59,907 bases of DNA, from IMG/VR virus record IMGVR_UViG_3300029906_000160; one strand, given 5' to 3'. How positions within the stretch are numbered: the first letter of the stretch is position 1; each line of letters begins with the position of its first letter. The position numbers were made by a program, and so were the translations under genes. The notes beneath the pieces are model-generated. The model searched no databases. It was not told where the DNA came from and worked only from the letters and a program-made list of their open reading frames with translations. Below, one piece after another: positions 26,977 through 33,839 of the stretch. This DNA is from a virus (Duplodnaviria; Heunggongvirae; Uroviricota; Caudoviricetes).

Positions 26977-27863
26977 TTAAAAATCTCCATAATACACTTG
27001 ACAAGATAATAAACCTTCTGAGCGTTCCATATCAATTACCTTTTGACGATCATCAAAGACTGCTATACAATAATATTTGTTGTATATTTCTGATTCAAAC
27101 AGCTCTTTTTTAATTACTTCATCTGGACGATAATCCTTCTCTTTTCGCATATAAAGCTGATATGGAATTCCAACATTATCGTTAAGCCATTTAGCTGTAT
27201 CTTGACGACATTGTTCTGTTCCTTCTCTACCTGAGAAAAAGATTATGTCTACAGATCCACTAAGAATTCTAAGCAAATCTATGAGAGGATCATTAGGTTT
27301 ATCTGCAAGAACTCTAGTTAAATCGTAAGGATTTCTACCTCCATTTAAGCACAATGTTCCGTCTAAATCGCAAACAATGCATTTTGGAAGAGTTTTATCC
27401 TGTTGTTTTATGTATCTATTATCCAATTTAATATCTTCTTTTAGATACCTATCGTAATAATACTGCTGATAAAATCGTTTGAGAACTTTTTCTCCAACAG
27501 ATCTTTCTCTATTTTTATCTCGTTCAAGAGCTTCTTTAAATGGAATATAAAATTCTTTAAATTCAATAAAGGAATTAGTTTCTTTTGCTAATTTATTCCA
27601 TTTATCTATAGTTTTAGGATTAAGATTTGTTGCGTCAATTATTACATTATACCCTCTTTTAATAGCAGCTCTTACAGAAAATTCTTCAAGATCACTTATA
27701 TAATCTTCCTGAGAGGGAATCCAATATTCACCTCTGCCTTCTCTTAAACTGTCTCTATTAACTATAACCCAATCCAAATTACTTTTAACGAATTTTCGAG
27801 CAAAGGTACTTTTTCCAGAAGCCGAATTTACGGAGGGCCCTGTAATACTAATATCTTAGACAT
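26977..27863 (-). CDS. pnk: Polynucleotide kinase-phosphatase (T4 PseT-like), interrupted after codon 11 by an 8-nt insertion; 292 aa if the gap is skipped
   Basis: MSKILVLQGPP[TAAATTCG]ASGKST P-loop, VNRDSLR, IIDATNL, HAD CDLDGTL, FDDR. Exons 27863..27831 and 27822..26977. Confidence 0.85.
27823..27830 (-). other. 8-nt coding gap TAAATTCG (in-frame stop first) within pnk P-loop codons
   Basis: Seen by comparison with the uninterrupted upstream duplicate at 28874-28918. Confidence 0.8.
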
Positions 27864-27881: not shown

Positions 27882-28769
27882 TTAATTTATTTTGTTTCAT
27901 TTTCTATTTAATATCTGTAAATTATTCTTTAGTATAAATTGTTTAAGAAATTGTAAATTACTTTGTTTACCAGTTCTAATGCAAATGGTGTCTGTATTAT
28001 TAATATAATTTATATGAAAATCCATATTAATTTTATTTATTAGACTATTATAAAAATTTTCCCAATTTTTATGTGCTGTTATTGAAACATAAAGTGCGTT
28101 TCCAGATTTGGATATACAACCATCTCCATCAATAATTCCAATAAGTAATGCTAATAATTGTTCTTTTGAATAATTATCAAAACTACTAAAATCGCAAGGA
28201 TCATAAGTTTTTCTATAATTAAATCCAAAAAATTGCATAAATTTTGGAATAGAATTTCTATTAGAAAAAGATATTCTATAGCTTTTTGTAGACTGACGAT
28301 GTTTAATAGCTTTATTATAATTAATATATTCTTTAAATCTTTCTAATTGTTCTAAATCAGATTCTTGTAACCCTAATTCAAATCTAAATTTCGAGAAAGA
28401 TCCATCGGCAAGAATAAATCCAACTCAATAAAAAGATTGTAAAGATAAATCTAATAATTTATCTAGACTATTTTCTGCTACATTATTAGAAGTTATATGT
28501 AGTTCTCCTACTTTAAATTTTCCAGAATTGTTGGAACAAGATAAACATTTTGTATTATGTTTAGTTGCCCAATTTAAATCACTTTTTCTTTTATAATAAA
28601 TTAATTTTCCACATTCTGGACACGGACGATTATATTCTCCAGCTTCGCCTTTTACTAAATCTTTACAATTAGAGCATAAGGAATTTTCTTTTTCTGCTTT
28701 TTCTCAACTTCATTTTTGTTTATATACAATTTCTTTATTACATCTTGGACAAATATGAATATATTCCAT
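27882..28769 (-). CDS. Free-standing LAGLIDADG homing endonuclease with two N-terminal Zn-ribbon repeats, 295 aa
   Basis: CPRC..CSNC and CPEC..CLSC; motifs YWVGFILADG and LLIGIIDGDG; TGA=W. Confidence 0.87.
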
Positions 28770-28826
28770 AAAATTTTTTGTATTAGCAATTAATAAAATC
28801 TTTTAAATTTAAAATCTTTACTAATA

Positions 28827-28858
28827 CAAAGTTAAGTAAAATTTTATTAATTTCCAAG
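28827..28858 (-). promoter_or_regulatory. Bacteroidota sigma70-type promoter
   Basis: CTTG-N20-TAACTTTG upstream of the LAGLIDADG ORF. Confidence 0.65.
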
Positions 28859-28918
28859 GATTTCCATGAAAATTTTTCCACTAGCTGGAGGACCCTGAAG
28901 TACTAATATCTTACTCAT
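28847..28918 (-). pseudogene. Orphaned 5' remnant of pnk (23 aa)
   Basis: MSKILVLQGPPASGK, then unrelated IFMEILGN-stop. The first 15 aa are identical to the downstream pnk copy. Confidence 0.85.
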
Positions 28919-29549
28919 CTTGTTTTACAGATTTAATATAATATTCATATCGTCCCTTATTCTTTTCATAAAACTGATTTCAAATCTGATTTATAAAAGC
29001 AATTCGTCCGTCGACATCAGAATTAGCAATATCCTGATAATATTTGTTTGCTTCTTTAAAGTCAGTAATTTTATGAAAGTCAATTATTTGTTGTGTGAAT
29101 AAAATATCTTTAATAAAATACCAAACTATTTTTGAATCAGTAATATAATTAATAATTGCTGCTTTTCTAATCATTAAATCTTTAATAAGTTTAATTAAAT
29201 CTGTTTTTAGAATTAATTTTACATATTCTTTTTTAATGAATTTTTTATTTAAACAAGCACATTCCCAAGCTGGTATTTTATTATCAAGAACCATTTTAAA
29301 CCAATTCTGAATAAAAACAAACATAAAATCAGAATTTTCATATTTAATATTTTTACGATCGTTTATATATCCAGAATTATATTCATAAGAGAGATATTCT
29401 TCTGGAAGTTCATATTCAGAATCAATTATAACTAAATAATCAATATCACTATCTTTTGTATTCAATCCATAAATAGAAGATTCTCTTTGGTATATGTAAT
29501 ACACTTTAGGATCTTCTATTAAATGTTGAAGAAATTTATTAGTTTCCAT
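28911..29549 (-). CDS. Nucleotidyltransferase-like protein, 212 aa
   Basis: RESSIYG...SDIDY resembles the GS..YG..SDxD Pol-beta superfamily motif. Extended through a TGA to TAA 28911. Confidence 0.6.
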
Positions 29550-29988
29550 TATCTTCAGCTACCTTTTCTTGAGCTGCTTCAAACTTTTGTTCTGTTGTTT
29601 TAGGTTCTGCATGGTTTTTAATCCATTCTTTAATCCTAGATATATTTGAAATTTGATAATTTTGAAATATTTGATAAATAATGTGATCTACTTCATTTAC
29701 TTCAACAGGATTAAGATCAATTGGATAATCAACGTCATTTATACACATTACATAAGCTCGCTTTGTAGGTGTATCCTTATCTTTGGGAAATAACCTATAA
29801 AAGTTATCTACTGTAAATGGAAATTTAAGAGACATTTCTATTTTTGCAGACTCTTTAATATCAAACCACTTGATATCTACATAATCATATTCGTTATCGT
29901 TTTGCTTATCAAACTTATAAGTTATACGACCTTCACATATATAATGTGGAACACATTTAGTAAGTAAATCAATAAATAACTGTTTCAT
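29539..29988 (-). CDS. Hypothetical protein, 149 aa
   Basis: Track ORF. Confidence 0.7.
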   Translation of the reverse strand: MKQLFIDLLTKCVPHYICEGRITYKFDKQNDNEYDYVDIKWFDIKESAKIEMSLKFPFTVDNFYRLFPKDKDTPTKRAYVMCINDVDYPIDLNPVEVNEVDHIIYQIFQNYQISNISRIKEWIKNHAEPKTTEQKFEAAQEKVAEDNGN

Positions 29989-30000
29989 ATTATTTTTTTA

Positions 30001-30825
30001 TTAATTATTATCCTCAATATTATCTTCTCCTGCATCTAACTGTTGCTGCTCTTTATTTAAGAATGCAAATGCTTTAAGTTTTACAGCTGCAGGAATCATA
30101 TCTTCTTTCTTAATTACTATTCCTTCGTGAGGAACTTTATTAGTACAATCTGGAGAGTTTAATTCCATATAGAAGTTCTTATCATTAGCAAGTCTATCTA
30201 TAAAGTTTTCCTGCCAATGCTCCTGCTCATTAAGATCCTTATATAAATCTTTAGCATATCCATAATAAAGTTCTTCTACTGAAATTAAACCATTAGTTTT
30301 ACACCATTGTTGAACTTCTCGTGCAGAAAATTCATGGACTTGTCCATCTACATTAGTTAAAGTAATTCTATATATTCTTACTTTAAAATTAATTTCTGGT
30401 TTATAATCTTGTTCATTTTTCGGAGGAATACATTCATAATCATAATTCTTTTGAATATAACCTCCATTTGGAAGAAAACCAACTATCTCATAGTATGCAG
30501 TCATTCCCTTCTGTAAAAACGGTTTAACATAATCATCTGCATATTTCCATACATCACAACCATAAAATCCTTTACTAACCGTTTTGTTATAGTTAGCATT
30601 TTTAATTACAGATCTAGATGCATAAAGATAATCATAATCTATGTCATATTTCTTCCAGAATTTATACCATTTAACTGGTTTCTTACATAAAACATAAGCA
30701 GAAATTCCTGATGTATTATGAATTAATATTCCATTTGCAAAAAAATTATGTGTAGAATTAACTGTTAAATCGTAACGATCTTTAGTTGGAATTTTCTTTA
30801 TTGATTTTATTTTCAGATATTGCAT
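30001..30825 (-). CDS. C-terminal split-intein fragment (37 aa) fused to the C-terminal half of an Rnl2-type RNA ligase
   Basis: MQYLKIKSIKK...YDLTVNSTHNFFANGILIHN|T (intein blocks F/G). The extein has YYEIVG, FKVRIY and HEGIVIK ligase motifs. Confidence 0.9.
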   Translation of the reverse strand: MQYLKIKSIKKIPTKDRYDLTVNSTHNFFANGILIHNTSGISAYVLCKKPVKWYKFWKKYDIDYDYLYASRSVIKNANYNKTVSKGFYGCDVWKYADDYVKPFLQKGMTAYYEIVGFLPNGGYIQKNYDYECIPPKNEQDYKPEINFKVRIYRITLTNVDGQVHEFSAREVQQWCKTNGLISVEELYYGYAKDLYKDLNEQEHWQENFIDRLANDKNFYMELNSPDCTNKVPHEGIVIKKEDMIPAAVKLKAFAFLNKEQQQLDAGEDNIEDNN

Positions 30826-31903
30826 AATCTAATAATTCTTTTTTTATTTTTTCTAATTCTATTTGATTAATGATTTCTGATTCTCAATAATATTTAATTT
30901 GAAATCCGTTAGTAATAGCTAGATTTTCTTTTATTTTATCTTTTTTTCAAATATCTTTTGCTAATACACCGTTCGTTCCTGGAAATTTAAGAATATCATT
31001 TTCTTTATATTTTCGAGGATCTGCGTGTCAAAATGTTCCATTTAATTCAATTAGAATATTTCCGATTTTAAAATCATAATATCGCGGTTGAAAATCAGTT
31101 TCTCAAAGAATATATTCAGATTCAAATTCAATATTAGAAATTTTTAAGAATTCTCCAATAATTCGATTTAAACTAGATATTGATGCTGATTTAGAATCAT
31201 AATGTTTACACATTGTTTGAATGTGTTCTTCTCATTTTTTAGAAGCGTCTTCTCCATATTTTTCAACGTAATATTCGTATCGATTACTTTTACCTCGATC
31301 ATATCTAATTTTATTTCATATATTAATACCTTTTTCTTCACCATAGCGTCTAATACAATATTCTTCGGTTACCTTAAATAAATCTGACTGTGCAGGATGT
31401 TCAACACCATATTTTTTAAGTAATGTTTGTTTACTTTTTTCTTGAACATCCTTTCGTTGAAAAACATTTGTAATACCCTCTTCTTCTAATAAACGTTGTT
31501 CTCACTTTTTTCTAGATTCTGATTCTTTACAAAAATTATGAGGACATCCATATCGTTCTAAATTTGTTTCTTTTCTTCTCTCTTTTGTTTTAGAATTAGA
31601 ATTGGCACGTTTAATAGAAGTATCAATACCAAACTCCTTAAAAATCTCTCTAATATTATTATCTCCAATAGTATATCCATCAGTTAATGGAATATACTTT
31701 TTACAAAATTCTATAACACTTCCTAAAGAATCTAATTCTTGTTCTAACGTTTCTTTTGTTCAATGAAACTGTTCTATAAATTGATGTTTACTTTTACATT
31801 TAATATTATGTTTAAACATCGCTGTCTTTGGATTCTTACTATTATTTGAATCATAAATTCGTCCACAATAAGGACAAGTTAAACTAATAAATTTTTTACT
31901 CAT
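30782..31903 (-). CDS. Vsr/DUF559-like homing endonuclease, 373 aa
   Basis: YDFKIGNILIELNGTFW(TGA)HADP, KDKIK, YYWE. N-terminal CPYC and LERYG/LKKYG repeats. Confidence 0.82.
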
Positions 31904-31931
31904 ATTTTTATAGATTTTAAAATTAACATTA

Positions 31932-31963
31932 CAAATATAAGTAAAAAATTTCATGAATCCAAA
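31932..31963 (-). promoter_or_regulatory. Bacteroidota sigma70-type promoter
   Basis: TTTG-N20-TATATTTG between the IntN stop and the endonuclease ATG. Confidence 0.78.
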
Positions 31964-31970
31964 TAATTTT

Positions 31971-32912
31971 TTAGTTATCTGAAAATAAAACTGTATCTCC
32001 TTCTATAAGTTCATCGACTCTTCTGTAACAATTTAATTCTGGAAGCCAAACTGGATTATTTCCAGTAATTTCAATTTTTTGTCCATTTTCTAATTCTATT
32101 TCATACCAATCTCCATCATTTTCTTTTAAATAATAATTATCGATTGGAACAAAAACCTTTTGTTGTGTTTCTATGTCAAATGCTTCAATCAATATATTTA
32201 ATTTATTATCAACAATTTCTTTAATTGTTTTCTTTCCTAAATTAGTATTAATTATAGTATTTGCATCAACACAGCCATGAATTTTGCTTGTAATAGAAAT
32301 TAAATCATCTGGCTTAATTGGATTTACAAGCTTTTTAAGTATAGCGGTTTCATAATGAAATCTAAATTGAGTATCTATAACTCTATTAAATTTCTTTACT
32401 TTCTTTTGATAACGAGATTCTTTAGCTGTATGCGAGATTTCAGTTTTAATTATATATTTCTTACATATCCAAAGAACTTTATCTCCACATTTAATAGAAT
32501 CAAATTCAGTATTAATCTGAGGTTCAATTGTTTGAAGAGTATTATCTATAAGAAAGTTATTAAAAATATTCCATTCAAGTAAAAATCCTTCCGAAACTAC
32601 TCCACGAAGTTTAATAGCCTTTACTCGTCCATTATCTTCAAAAAATCCCGCTTTAGTTTCTGGTTCATTGTTCTTTTCAGTATGCCTATAAAGATTTCCA
32701 TAAGCTAAGAGTTGAGGATTTATTTCACAAGAAGTTGGAAAGTAAACATAAATTCCTGGTTCAGAATCAATACCCACAACAATATTAAATCCATCTACAT
32801 GAGCTAATTTTAATTTAGTTGTTTCAGGATCTGGATGAGGTGTAAAATTTTGTATATCTATTATTTTTGCTAAATAATTAATATTAGCATTTTTTGACTT
32901 TACAAATTTCAT
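31971..32912 (-). CDS. N-terminal half of an Rnl2-type RNA ligase (213 aa) fused to an N-terminal split-intein fragment (100 aa)
   Basis: PHPD...LKLAHVDG and KLRGVVSEG motifs. Motif I ITSKIHG is followed by intein block A CVDANT (Cys codon 32273) and then TAA. Confidence 0.9.
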   Translation of the reverse strand: MKFVKSKNANINYLAKIIDIQNFTPHPDPETTKLKLAHVDGFNIVVGIDSEPGIYVYFPTSCEINPQLLAYGNLYRHTEKNNEPETKAGFFEDNGRVKAIKLRGVVSEGFLLEWNIFNNFLIDNTLQTIEPQINTEFDSIKCGDKVLWICKKYIIKTEISHTAKESRYQKKVKKFNRVIDTQFRFHYETAILKKLVNPIKPDDLISITSKIHGCVDANTIINTNLGKKTIKEIVDNKLNILIEAFDIETQQKVFVPIDNYYLKENDGDWYEIELENGQKIEITGNNPVWLPELNCYRRVDELIEGDTVLFSDN

Positions 32913-32914
32913 AA

Positions 32915-33085
32915 TTAATTAAAAAAGAATTTTTCGTAATAGTCATCGTACTCTGACATATACTCGTCTTTGACTTCTATTTTTTCTTCACCATTTTCAG
33001 AAATAGTTGTTATTTTCCAATTATTTCCGTATTTAGCGTTCATAATATCTTCTGCTTTAATCGCAGCATTTTCTATCTTACTCAT
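32915..33085 (-). CDS. Small acidic hypothetical protein, 56 aa
   Basis: MSKIENAAIKAEDIM...; fills the gap between genes. Confidence 0.55.
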   Translation of the reverse strand: MSKIENAAIKAEDIMNAKYGNNWKITTISENGEEKIEVKDEYMSEYDDYYEKFFFN

Positions 33086-33839
33086 TATTTTTATTTTTAA
33101 TTAATTCATCATACAATTCTACAGCTTCATCATATTCTTCATATCTTTCTGGTTTAATATAGCTTTTAGATAACGCGAAAAATTCTGTATCTTTATTATT
33201 TTTACTCTGAATCCACTTACCACAATCAGCTACAGTTTGTAGTAAATCTCCAGCATGTTCTCCATAAACATACGTTAAAAGACTTTCCCAATAATGATCT
33301 GGAGAATCTGTTTCTAGTTTACATTCTGGATATAACCAAAAAGATAAAGATAATCCAAAAGCAACTATCGTAAATTGAGGTGGAAATTCATATCTAAAAT
33401 CATAAGCATGCCATTTTGTTTTCCATATTAAATCATGATTAAATATGTAAAATCCCATCCAAATCGGAAAATGTATATATGCTTTAGCTATCCTTAAACC
33501 AAATTTTCTAAATAATCTACGATATTTACTTTTCCAAACTACATCCCAAGGCTTTAAGTTACCTGGAAGTTTATGCACAGACGATTCGTAATAATCAAAT
33601 TGATAAATTGTACCGTCAGGTTTTAAATCGCCCTTACTATGTATTTTAACTGGAACTTGATTATAAATTTGATAACATTTTGAATTCGCTTTATAACTAG
33701 AACCTCCAATTCGCCAAATAGGACCTCTTCTCCAAACTGGAAGACATGGATCGTTTTTCCACTTACCAAAATACCAATATAATTTAGGCTTTACGAATAC
33801 ATCTTTAGCTTTATTATATGTTTGATATAATTTTAACAT
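33078..33839 (-). CDS. Hypothetical Trp-rich protein, 253 aa
   Basis: Track ORF; all 12 Trp codons are TGG. Confidence 0.8.
   Translation of the reverse strand: MLKLYQTYNKAKDVFVKPKLYWYFGKWKNDPCLPVWRRGPIWRIGGSSYKANSKCYQIYNQVPVKIHSKGDLKPDGTIYQFDYYESSVHKLPGNLKPWDVVWKSKYRRLFRKFGLRIAKAYIHFPIWMGFYIFNHDLIWKTKWHAYDFRYEFPPQFTIVAFGLSLSFWLYPECKLETDSPDHYWESLLTYVYGEHAGDLLQTVADCGKWIQSKNNKDTEFFALSKSYIKPERYEEYDEAVELYDELIKNKNNE

Follow-up and report, generated by a model that had tools for sequence, protein, structure and literature searches.

A probable split-intein-fractured RNA ligase gene with a Vsr-like homing endonuclease in a phage that reassigns TGA

Organization of the interrupted ligase locus

Within a 59,907-nt stretch of DNA from a tailed phage (IMG/VR record IMGVR_UViG_3300029906_000160; hereafter the window), the gene for a predicted ATP-dependent RNA ligase is broken in two, and half of an intein is attached to each side of the break. 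This fractured ligase (rnl) locus occupies positions 30001..32912 (2912 nt), and all of its genes lie on the minus strand. The first gene (N-gene; 31971..32912, 313 aa) encodes the N-terminal part of the ligase (N-extein; codons 1-213, 32274..32912) followed by a 100-codon N-terminal intein half (IntN; C214..N313, 31971..32273), and it ends in a TAA stop codon at 31971..31973. The second gene (C-gene; 30001..30825, 274 aa) starts with a 37-codon C-terminal intein half (IntC; 30715..30825) and continues into the C-terminal part of the ligase (C-extein; 237 codons and a stop, 30001..30714). Between the two intein halves lie a spacer with a predicted RNA hairpin (31889..31951, A/U stem of ~19 bp) and a 373-codon gene for a free-standing homing endonuclease (30782..31903). 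The 3' end of the endonuclease gene overlaps the start of the IntC open reading frame (ORF) by 44 nt in a different frame (30782..30825), and the same overlap is present in the related loci L004, L005, L009, L010 and L031.

IntN, the spacer with its hairpin, the endonuclease gene and IntC thus form, in that order, a 1559-nt cassette (30715..32273) located between Gly213 and Thr214 of ligase motif I (K-I-H-G/T-S). The N-gene reads ...ISITSKIHG up to this point and then CVDANT...LFSDN before the TAA, while IntC ends in ILIHN and the C-extein begins with TSGISAY, so that the junction peptide predicted for trans-splicing is SKIHGTSGISAY. When joined, the exteins comprise 213 + 237 = 450 aa (1353 nt), which is the exact length of the intact sibling gene in L017, a syntenic 174-kb phage contig. 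An initial annotation, made by a model from the sequence and its ORFs, had placed the break inside motif I (SKIHG/TSG) and predicted a joined product of ~450 aa; its coordinates all hold on the minus strand. It had also described a 100-aa IntN ending in TAA with about 20 acidic and 9 basic residues, and a basic 37-aa IntC ending in HN before a Thr. We count exactly 20 acidic and 9 basic residues in IntN and 2 acidic and 6 basic residues in IntC, with T38 as the next residue.

The locus is conserved in independent assemblies and is under purifying selection

We found the 2912-nt locus at 99.9-100% identity in four assemblies from four samples, and the protein encoded by the N-gene occurs in exact form on 14 contigs. 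Because the same TAA at 31971 is present in all four of these independent assemblies, we conclude that the stop codon is not an error. Among the best 120 homologous protein clusters, ~38 are split N-halves of 303-345 aa and the rest are mostly intact ligases of ~450 aa. The fractured architecture was seen at 12 of 13 IMG/VR loci and on a 549-kb Lak-type contig, and at distant loci the intein halves are 47-81% identical to those described here while the exteins are only 23-45% identical.

To measure selection, we compared each part of the locus with the split alleles of two relatives, L024 and L025. The ratio of nonsynonymous to synonymous substitution rates (dN/dS) was low throughout (N-extein, 0.13; C-extein, 0.13; IntN, 0.06-0.11; IntC, 0-0.06; endonuclease, 0.10-0.12 with TGA read as Trp), and therefore the ligase, the intein and the endonuclease are all under purifying selection. 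In the same comparisons, the cassette had a lower dS than the exteins on either side.

We asked whether the interval might instead be removed at the RNA level, as a group I or group II intron carrying an endonuclease ORF, or whether a contiguous intein might only seem to be split through an assembly error at the TAA. The former has a precedent in the Zeta-group crAss-like phages, where group I introns are reportedly abundant (PMC7886860). However, the flanks of the interval are recognized as intein halves by hidden Markov models and are in frame with the exteins, and an Rfam search over 29500..33500 at E-values up to 1 returned no intron or other RNA family save one chance microRNA match outside the cassette. 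An assembly error is opposed by the TAA shared among four assemblies and by the same stop position in dozens of diverged alleles. We regard both forms of this explanation as extremely improbable.

The exteins are predicted to form an Rnl5-like RNA ligase

The two exteins match consecutive parts of a single RNA ligase family: of the 398 positions of phrog_968, positions 4-195 align with the N-gene and positions 205-397 with the C-gene. In addition, PF21189, an oligonucleotide-binding (OB) domain, and TIGR02306 match weakly on N-gene residues 16-118, and PF09414 matches the C-extein (E 2.5e-4). The N-extein thus spans an OB-fold domain, a linker and motif I through K210-I-H-G213, and the insertion point is three residues past the motif I lysine K210, the predicted site of adenylylation. 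The Thr at the +1 position of the C-extein is the conserved Thr of motif I (T-S-G), and we take YYEIVG, EGIVIK and KLK of the C-extein to be nucleotidyltransferase (NTase) motifs III, IV and V, respectively. Intact homologues are contiguous across the break, among them MT835470 from human faeces (SKVHGTSGISA), Lak-B8 and Synechococcus phage B3. In comparison with four intact homologues the junction is seamless, with the alignment of the N-extein running right up to ...SKxHG.

We used structure prediction to place this enzyme among known RNA ligases, as a sequence search of the Protein Data Bank (PDB) with the intact ligase returned nothing significant and placement is by fold search only. The AlphaFold2 (AF2) model of the intact sibling protein P0021 (mean predicted local distance difference test score, pLDDT, 77) matched NgrRnl best, over its full length (~450 columns, E 1.5e-12). 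The match to T4 Rnl2 was restricted to the NTase domain (277-308 columns, E 2.8e-6 to 2.6e-5). The initial annotation had called the enzyme an Rnl2-type ligase, a class defined by an NTase domain with an Rnl2-specific C-terminal domain and no N-terminal OB domain. Because the phage ligase has an N-terminal OB domain and matches NgrRnl along its full length, we propose that it is Rnl5-like rather than Rnl2-type. The P0021 model has the OB plus NTase architecture, without a C-terminal accessory domain, that characterizes the Rnl5 build. By sequence it falls outside Rnl5, since TIGR02306, the equivalog model for DraRnl, scores only 24-28 bits against a cut-off of 151 and does so over the OB domain only. 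The model therefore suggests a ligase that is Rnl5-like in build and belongs to a separate phage clade (phrog_968). In comparison with the Rnl5 enzymes (NgrRnl, PDB 5cot; DraRnl, TIGR02306), it has the same order of N-terminal OB domain and NTase domain, very low sequence similarity and ~110 aa of additional length relative to NgrRnl. Its motif I, K-x-H-G, is presumably of the form found in T4 Rnl2, as opposed to the K-x-D-G that we take to be typical of Rnl5.

The intein halves are related to NrdJ-1 and lack the block B histidine

The initial annotation had proposed a search of intein-block models as a check, and both halves scored above the NCBIfam cut-offs when we ran it. TIGR01445 (intein_Nterm) matched N-gene residues 214-288 with 35.1 bits (cut-off 24.5), and TIGR01443 (intein_Cterm) matched C-gene residues 18-38 with 30.7 bits (cut-off 15.6). 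The closest solved chain for both halves is NrdJ-1 (8ubs; IntN, E 8.9e-7; IntC, E 1.8e-5). Apart from block B, the residues of a class 1 intein are all present: C214 as Cys1 in block A, D19 and H26 in block F (D-R-Y-D-L-T-V..T-H-N-F-F-A-N-G), H36 and N37 in block G (I-L-I-H-N) and T38 as Thr+1. In IntC, R17 to T21, H36, N37, T38 and S39 are invariant in 9 sequences. The halves carry opposite net charges (IntN, -11; IntC, +4).

We predicted the structure of an IntN+IntC complex, which gave an interface score (interaction prediction score from aligned errors, ipSAE) of 0.80, compared with 0.00 for three controls; the runs shared at least 84% of their contacts, and partner pLDDT was at least 73. 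Of 80 solved complexes, 58 scored as high as this, and so did 2 of 110 mismatched pairs, counts that are rough since our own alignments were used. Because similar split-intein complexes have already been solved, this modelled complex may reflect likeness to them and is not proof of binding.

The intein departs from the class 1 pattern in block B. IntN contains no histidine at all, and in place of the T-x-x-H of block B it has T-G-N-N (residues 283-286 of P0001), which aligns with T-P-D-H of NrdJ-1. T-x-N-N (N96/N97) is itself invariant in about 40 relatives, including 27 aligned IntN sequences, 13 IMG/VR loci and forms in which the intein is contiguous (cis forms). The absence of the histidine and the Asn at its position could mean that the intein halves are dead for splicing, either acting as non-covalent dimerization tags or leaving an inactive ligase with the locus as selfish baggage. 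There is a precedent in NrdA of phage Aeh1, where domains derived from a mobile element assemble a fractured enzyme without splicing (PMC3045599).

Several observations are difficult to reconcile with loss of splicing. Every splicing residue other than the block B His is invariant among the aligned relatives, across intein halves that are only 47-81% identical, as is T-x-N-N itself, and dN/dS is ~0.1 in intein and exteins alike. The same T-G-N-N intein is found uninterrupted within otherwise intact ligase ORFs (P0243 and the P0244 cluster), where 137 foreign residues would stay in the active site, three residues past the catalytic Lys, if the insert did not splice. Finally, a small natural group of inteins without a block B His, the orthologues of Tko CDC21-1, is known that still splices (cited in PMC6333167). 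We therefore consider a splicing-dead intein improbable.

The invariance of T-x-N-N is not a pattern of decay, and the conserved Asn argues for a working alternative to the His. As the block B His is missing, the N-terminal splice junction would therefore be activated in another way, and an invariant extein His at position -2 is a speculative candidate for its stand-in. From these alignments, the rnl intein appears to belong to a clade related to NrdJ-1 with Asn in place of the block B His throughout. This clade spans split and cis forms and occurs in TGA-recoded, TAG-recoded and standard-code phages, Lak-type megaphages included.

The interval encodes a Vsr-like endonuclease readable with TGA as tryptophan

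Read in the standard code, no frame of the 1.1-kb interval between the ligase halves is open, but the interval contains one long ORF if TGA encodes Trp. This ORF has 8 in-frame TGA codons and no TGG. The TGA codons fall on invariant or near-invariant Trp residues of homologues (F-W-H, D-I-W and Y-W-E), which directly supports the reading of TGA as Trp. We assign the endonuclease gene to 30782..31903, starting at the ATG at 31903 (the methionine of MSK), because homologues are 373-374 aa long with this MSK start and because the upstream ATG at 31954 is shifted out of frame in L024 by an indel of 1 nt. The 390-aa form that would begin at 31954 was rejected on these same grounds. A fusion of IntN to the endonuclease by read-through of the TAA was also rejected, as the two are in different frames here and are separated by a single TGA in L011, from a phage that otherwise uses TGG. 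In L011, a standard-code relative, IntN and the endonuclease are in frame and one TGA apart (L011:4357-4400), and one reassignment or read-through event would fuse them.

The predicted protein carries a Cys/His zinc-ribbon-like motif at its N terminus, DUF7487 repeats that are helical and, at its C terminus, a nuclease domain of the Vsr-like (EDxHD) family. It matches PF24308 (DUF7487; E 5.2e-12) and the families phrog_3339 and phrog_12131, both named 'homing endonuclease', and some of its relatives carry DUF559 or the JGI name Vsr. A PDB sequence search with the endonuclease found nothing significant, so that its placement is by fold search only. The best PDB match to its AF2 model (pLDDT 88) was I-Bth0305I (3r3p; TM-score TMt 0.77, probability 1.00), followed by Vsr (1cw0 and 1vsr), with Foldseek E-values of only 2.6e-3 to 2.6e-2, the nuclease domain being one third of the model. 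The 373-aa Vsr-like nuclease named in the initial annotation is thus recovered by ORF and by fold. E263, D277, E286, H293 and D322 are invariant in 34 sequences and W292 nearly so, and an F-W-H motif is present; these E/D/E/H/D residues and the F-W-H motif are those named for the Vsr-like family (PMC2677866). A search of the 145.6-kb phage record with the endonuclease protein and with PF24308 detected this copy only, a second Vsr-like endonuclease at the IMPDH locus of the same genome being too diverged to register.

Codon use and a hairpin set the endonuclease apart from the ligase halves

Reading through TGA raises ORF coverage of the window from 67% to 93%. TGA makes up 144 of the 282 Trp codons in the window, concentrated in some genes and absent from others. 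At the rnl locus this division is complete, with 8 TGA and 0 TGG in the endonuclease gene compared with 0 TGA and 9 TGG in the two exteins and two intein halves taken together (exact test, 1/24310), and the endonuclease-only pattern of TGA is kept in L024 and L025. TAG-recoded relatives (L004, L005/L006 and the Lak-type L031) show the equivalent arrangement, with 2-5 in-frame TAG codons in the endonuclease, one of them at the invariant Gln of NVFQR, and none in the ligase halves. Read most simply, this pattern would allow the phage to produce the ligase halves ahead of the code switch, whereas production of the endonuclease would have to wait for it.

The 66-nt spacer that separates the IntN stop from the start of the endonuclease gene is near-invariant in alleles whose coding DNA is 83-90% identical. 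The minimum free energy of its predicted hairpin gave z-scores of -3.5 to -3.7 in the window, -4.25 in L024 and -3.08 in L025. The 3' arm holds the endonuclease start codon (31901..31903), and the 5' arm holds TATATTTG at 31932..31939. In the fractured loci described by Dassa et al. (2009), a hairpin precedes the endonuclease gene in 15 of 16 cases, frequently with a late-promoter element as part of the stem, and an overlap of the endonuclease 3' end with the downstream ORF was also noted (PMC2677866). TATATTTG matches the Bacteroidota-type promoter motif TAnnTTTG and could be such an element; the motif is too common to count as evidence, as this match is 1 of 129 in the window where 101 are expected and is thus uninformative.

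The cassette appears to have moved recently, and relatives represent all stages of a homing cycle

To examine mobility, we compared the window with L017, which has an empty ligase allele. The two are 85-92% identical over 9 kb, and the window carries two insertions, the ligase cassette and a LAGLIDADG cassette in the polynucleotide kinase gene (pnk). A blastn alignment breaks at window position 32274, where the N-extein ends. The joined extein sequence of the window is a mosaic. Nucleotides 1-270 and 1081-1353 are 90-97% identical to the empty allele of L017 and 67-82% identical to the split allele of L024, whereas nucleotides 361-810, which surround the insertion at nucleotide 639, are 92-97% identical to L024 and only 64-79% identical to L017. 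This mosaic contains a co-conversion tract, as expected from recent homing in which endonuclease-driven recombination brought the cassette from an L024-like donor into an L017-like genome, and it shows that ~450 nt of flanking extein sequence from another split allele came in with the cassette. The presence/absence polymorphism between siblings that are 85-92% identical, together with the sharp tract, points to recent transfer, and we infer from the tract that the endonuclease would cleave the empty allele in a site-specific manner.

Among relatives of the locus, each step of a homing cycle has its representatives: alleles with an empty site, split alleles with an endonuclease, alleles with a decaying endonuclease and contiguous mini-inteins. 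The last are found in full-length ligases (P0243, 629 aa; P0244, P0251 and P0252, 695-738 aa), with 73 members in the P0244 cluster alone. In L007 the endonuclease is down to its last ~45 codons. In L012 (IMGVR_UViG_3300005590_000001, L012:4294-4860), the endonuclease between IntN and IntC is inverted relative to the ligase halves. These two alleles would fit an endonuclease that is no longer active in homing, domesticated or dying, so that the cassette is now passed on only vertically. For the allele in the window we think this unlikely, given a dN/dS of 0.10-0.14 over 373 codons with TGA read as Trp, the invariance of all catalytic residues (E, D, E, H and D), the fact that siblings differ in having or lacking the cassette, the co-conversion tract, and a cassette dS below that of the exteins. 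Together, these comparisons indicate that the locus is probably a genuine, selected and recently mobile fractured gene.

A proposed pathway and points that weigh against it

From the combined analyses we propose that the locus is a fractured gene, in which a split intein together with a free-standing Vsr-like homing endonuclease occupies a phage RNA-repair ligase and the cassette is mobile and trans-splicing, a reading that we hold to be very probable. It agrees with the initial annotation, which had described a fractured gene with a naturally split intein in a recoded phage, and is supported by the model searches, intact homologues, fold searches, selection analysis and co-conversion tract. 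In this pathway, the ligase halves, neither of which has a TGA codon, would be translated separately, and the acidic IntN and basic IntC would associate into a Hedgehog/intein (HINT) fold. Trans-splicing through Cys1, the block F Asp and His, the penultimate His, the terminal Asn and Thr+1 would then yield an Rnl5-like ligase of 450 aa whose adenylylation motif is intact, and in RNA repair this ligase would have the neighbouring polynucleotide kinase-phosphatase as its partner. During co-infection, the endonuclease would cut ligase alleles that lack the intein, and repair would copy the cassette in. The endonuclease would probably be held to late infection by two locks, the hairpin that hides its start codon and the eight TGA codons, which would need a phage tRNA that reads UGA.

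Several points weigh against this proposal. We infer splicing, ligase activity and DNA cleavage alike, from sequence. The intein lacks the block B His on which the N-S acyl shift normally depends, and the steric compensation described for a DnaB intein mutant without this His (PMC6333167) is unlikely here, as the -1 residue is a small Gly. The whole-domain intein model PF14890 scores 23.8 and 30.3 bits on the separate halves, under its cut-off of 35.8. No promoter was found for the endonuclease gene or the C-half: a sigma-70 scan gave 20 sites where 24.4 were expected, the TAnnTTTG motif is uninformative, and the promoter that the initial annotation had placed ahead of the endonuclease is not upheld. 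Lastly, exclusive use of TGA for Trp in the endonuclease could reflect relaxed selection in a gene that is not needed early, in a genome of 26% GC, as opposed to an evolved timing lock.

A stronger version of the proposal combines two claims: that the rnl intein clade splices efficiently without a block B His, by a new or extein-assisted activation involving the invariant Asn, the Gly at -1 and possibly the His at -2, and that the endonuclease is deliberately gated to late infection by the code switch. We offer this combination tentatively, as it is more doubtful than the fractured gene itself.

Neighbouring genes and other insertions

The neighbours of the ligase gene encode a polynucleotide kinase-phosphatase (26977..27777), a nucleotidyltransferase and an ATP-dependent DNA ligase. 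In mycobacteriophages, Pnk and an RNA ligase have been proposed to act in RNA repair (PMC3706429), and by analogy this neighbourhood fits an RNA-repair role of the phage ligase. The second insertion relative to L017 (window 27890..28910, minus strand; 1021 nt), in or beside pnk, encodes a 295-aa LAGLIDADG-matching protein with 4 TGA codons and would be a second mobile endonuclease cassette in the RNA-repair cluster. Just upstream of the ligase, a 253-aa ORF (33078..33839, minus strand) without a Pfam match contains 12 TGG and 0 TGA, the most extreme TGG-only gene in the window. A megablast search of the neighbouring DNA against GenBank phages gave no match, and a neighbouring protein of 1365 aa matched only the unannotated MT835470.

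Relatives of the locus show further variation. In L025 (L025:1-1311), the upstream ATP-dependent DNA ligase is called at 721 aa, compared with 401 aa in the window, with faint matches to DUF723 and DUF4379, and it may carry an insertion of its own. The cis-intein ligases P0244, P0251 and P0252 have a helical, Lys/Glu-rich insertion of ~100-130 aa in the N-terminal OB domain, which the ligase of the window is without. In L009 (L009:5401-7056, IMGVR_UViG_3300031813_000072), the C-extein ends after ~46 residues (...VIKNSWM*) and resumes ~1 kb on behind a new Met. The interval at this second break is closed in all three forward frames, so that any ORF would be on the opposite strand, and no intein halves are evident there; the L009 ligase would thus be in three pieces.

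Comparison with known systems

Of the solved inteins, NrdJ-1 (PDB 8ubs, 9omb) has the same split point as the rnl intein and similar lengths, with identities of ~36% for IntN and ~55% for IntC as counted by eye from printed alignments. NrdJ-1 has a canonical T-P-D-H block B, whereas the rnl intein has T-G-N-N, a Thr at +1 and another host gene. I-Bth0305I (PDB 3r3p; PMC3239194), the first characterized EDxHD member, is the best structural match to the endonuclease, ahead of E. coli Vsr, and shares its conserved acidic and His residues. It sits in a group I intron of recA, whereas the phage endonuclease is free-standing within a split intein and differs in its zinc-ribbon-like motif, its DUF7487 helical repeats and its use of TGA as Trp.

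A second fractured gene, for an IMPDH/GMP-reductase, is present in the same phage genome (intein halves at G000:C1:115832-117295), with the layout of the rnl locus and a TGA-recoded Vsr-like endonuclease. Its intein has a canonical block B (T-P-D-H), is ~26% identical to the rnl intein over the C-terminal part and has the opposite charge polarity (IntN, +2; IntC, -6; compared with -11 and +4 in the rnl pair). Because of this opposite polarity, we expect the two pairs to be kept from cross-reacting, and they are likely orthogonal in one cell.

Dassa et al. (2009; PMC2677866) described fractured gp41, IMPDH, DnaE, NrdA, NrdJ, DNA ligase, terminase and one unknown gene in marine metagenomes, with no RNA ligase among them. 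Those loci consist of two adjacent, co-oriented ORFs, the first ending in IntN and the second starting with IntC, with a Vsr-like endonuclease in between, a hairpin before the endonuclease start, a 3' overlap with the downstream ORF and a phage setting, all of which are found here. The rnl locus differs from them in its ATP-dependent RNA ligase host gene, its occurrence in gut-type phages that reassign TGA or TAG, the reassigned codon in the endonuclease and a block B without His. Yutin et al. (2021; PMC7886860) reported Zeta-group large crAss-like phages of 145-192 kb with TGA or TAG suppression that are crowded with introns and inteins, and did not mention RNA ligase, while a 2025 survey of actinobacteriophage inteins lists only RtcB-type ligases, a different enzyme family. 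Our literature search, of incomplete coverage and thus weak as evidence of absence, turned up no publication naming an ATP-dependent RNA ligase as the host of a split intein. The earlier suggestion of a potentially new host gene therefore stands as far as the searchable literature goes, in that no RNA ligase is among the known fractured genes, and we make no wider claim.

With this locus, an RNA-repair ligase would be added to the few genes known to be fractured by split inteins, and their range would extend from marine phages to abundant gut phages with altered codes. As the family includes all homing stages and a clean co-conversion tract, it lends itself to research on how inteins move in natural phage populations. 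To protein engineers it offers a compact NrdJ-1-related pair (100 + 37 aa) that has Thr at +1 and lacks the block B His. The codon pattern also suggests that stop-codon reassignment may serve, or may at least be tolerated, as a timing lock on selfish endonucleases. The layout itself has been known since 2009; in this case the host gene is new, block B has no His, and the endonuclease is readable only in an altered code.

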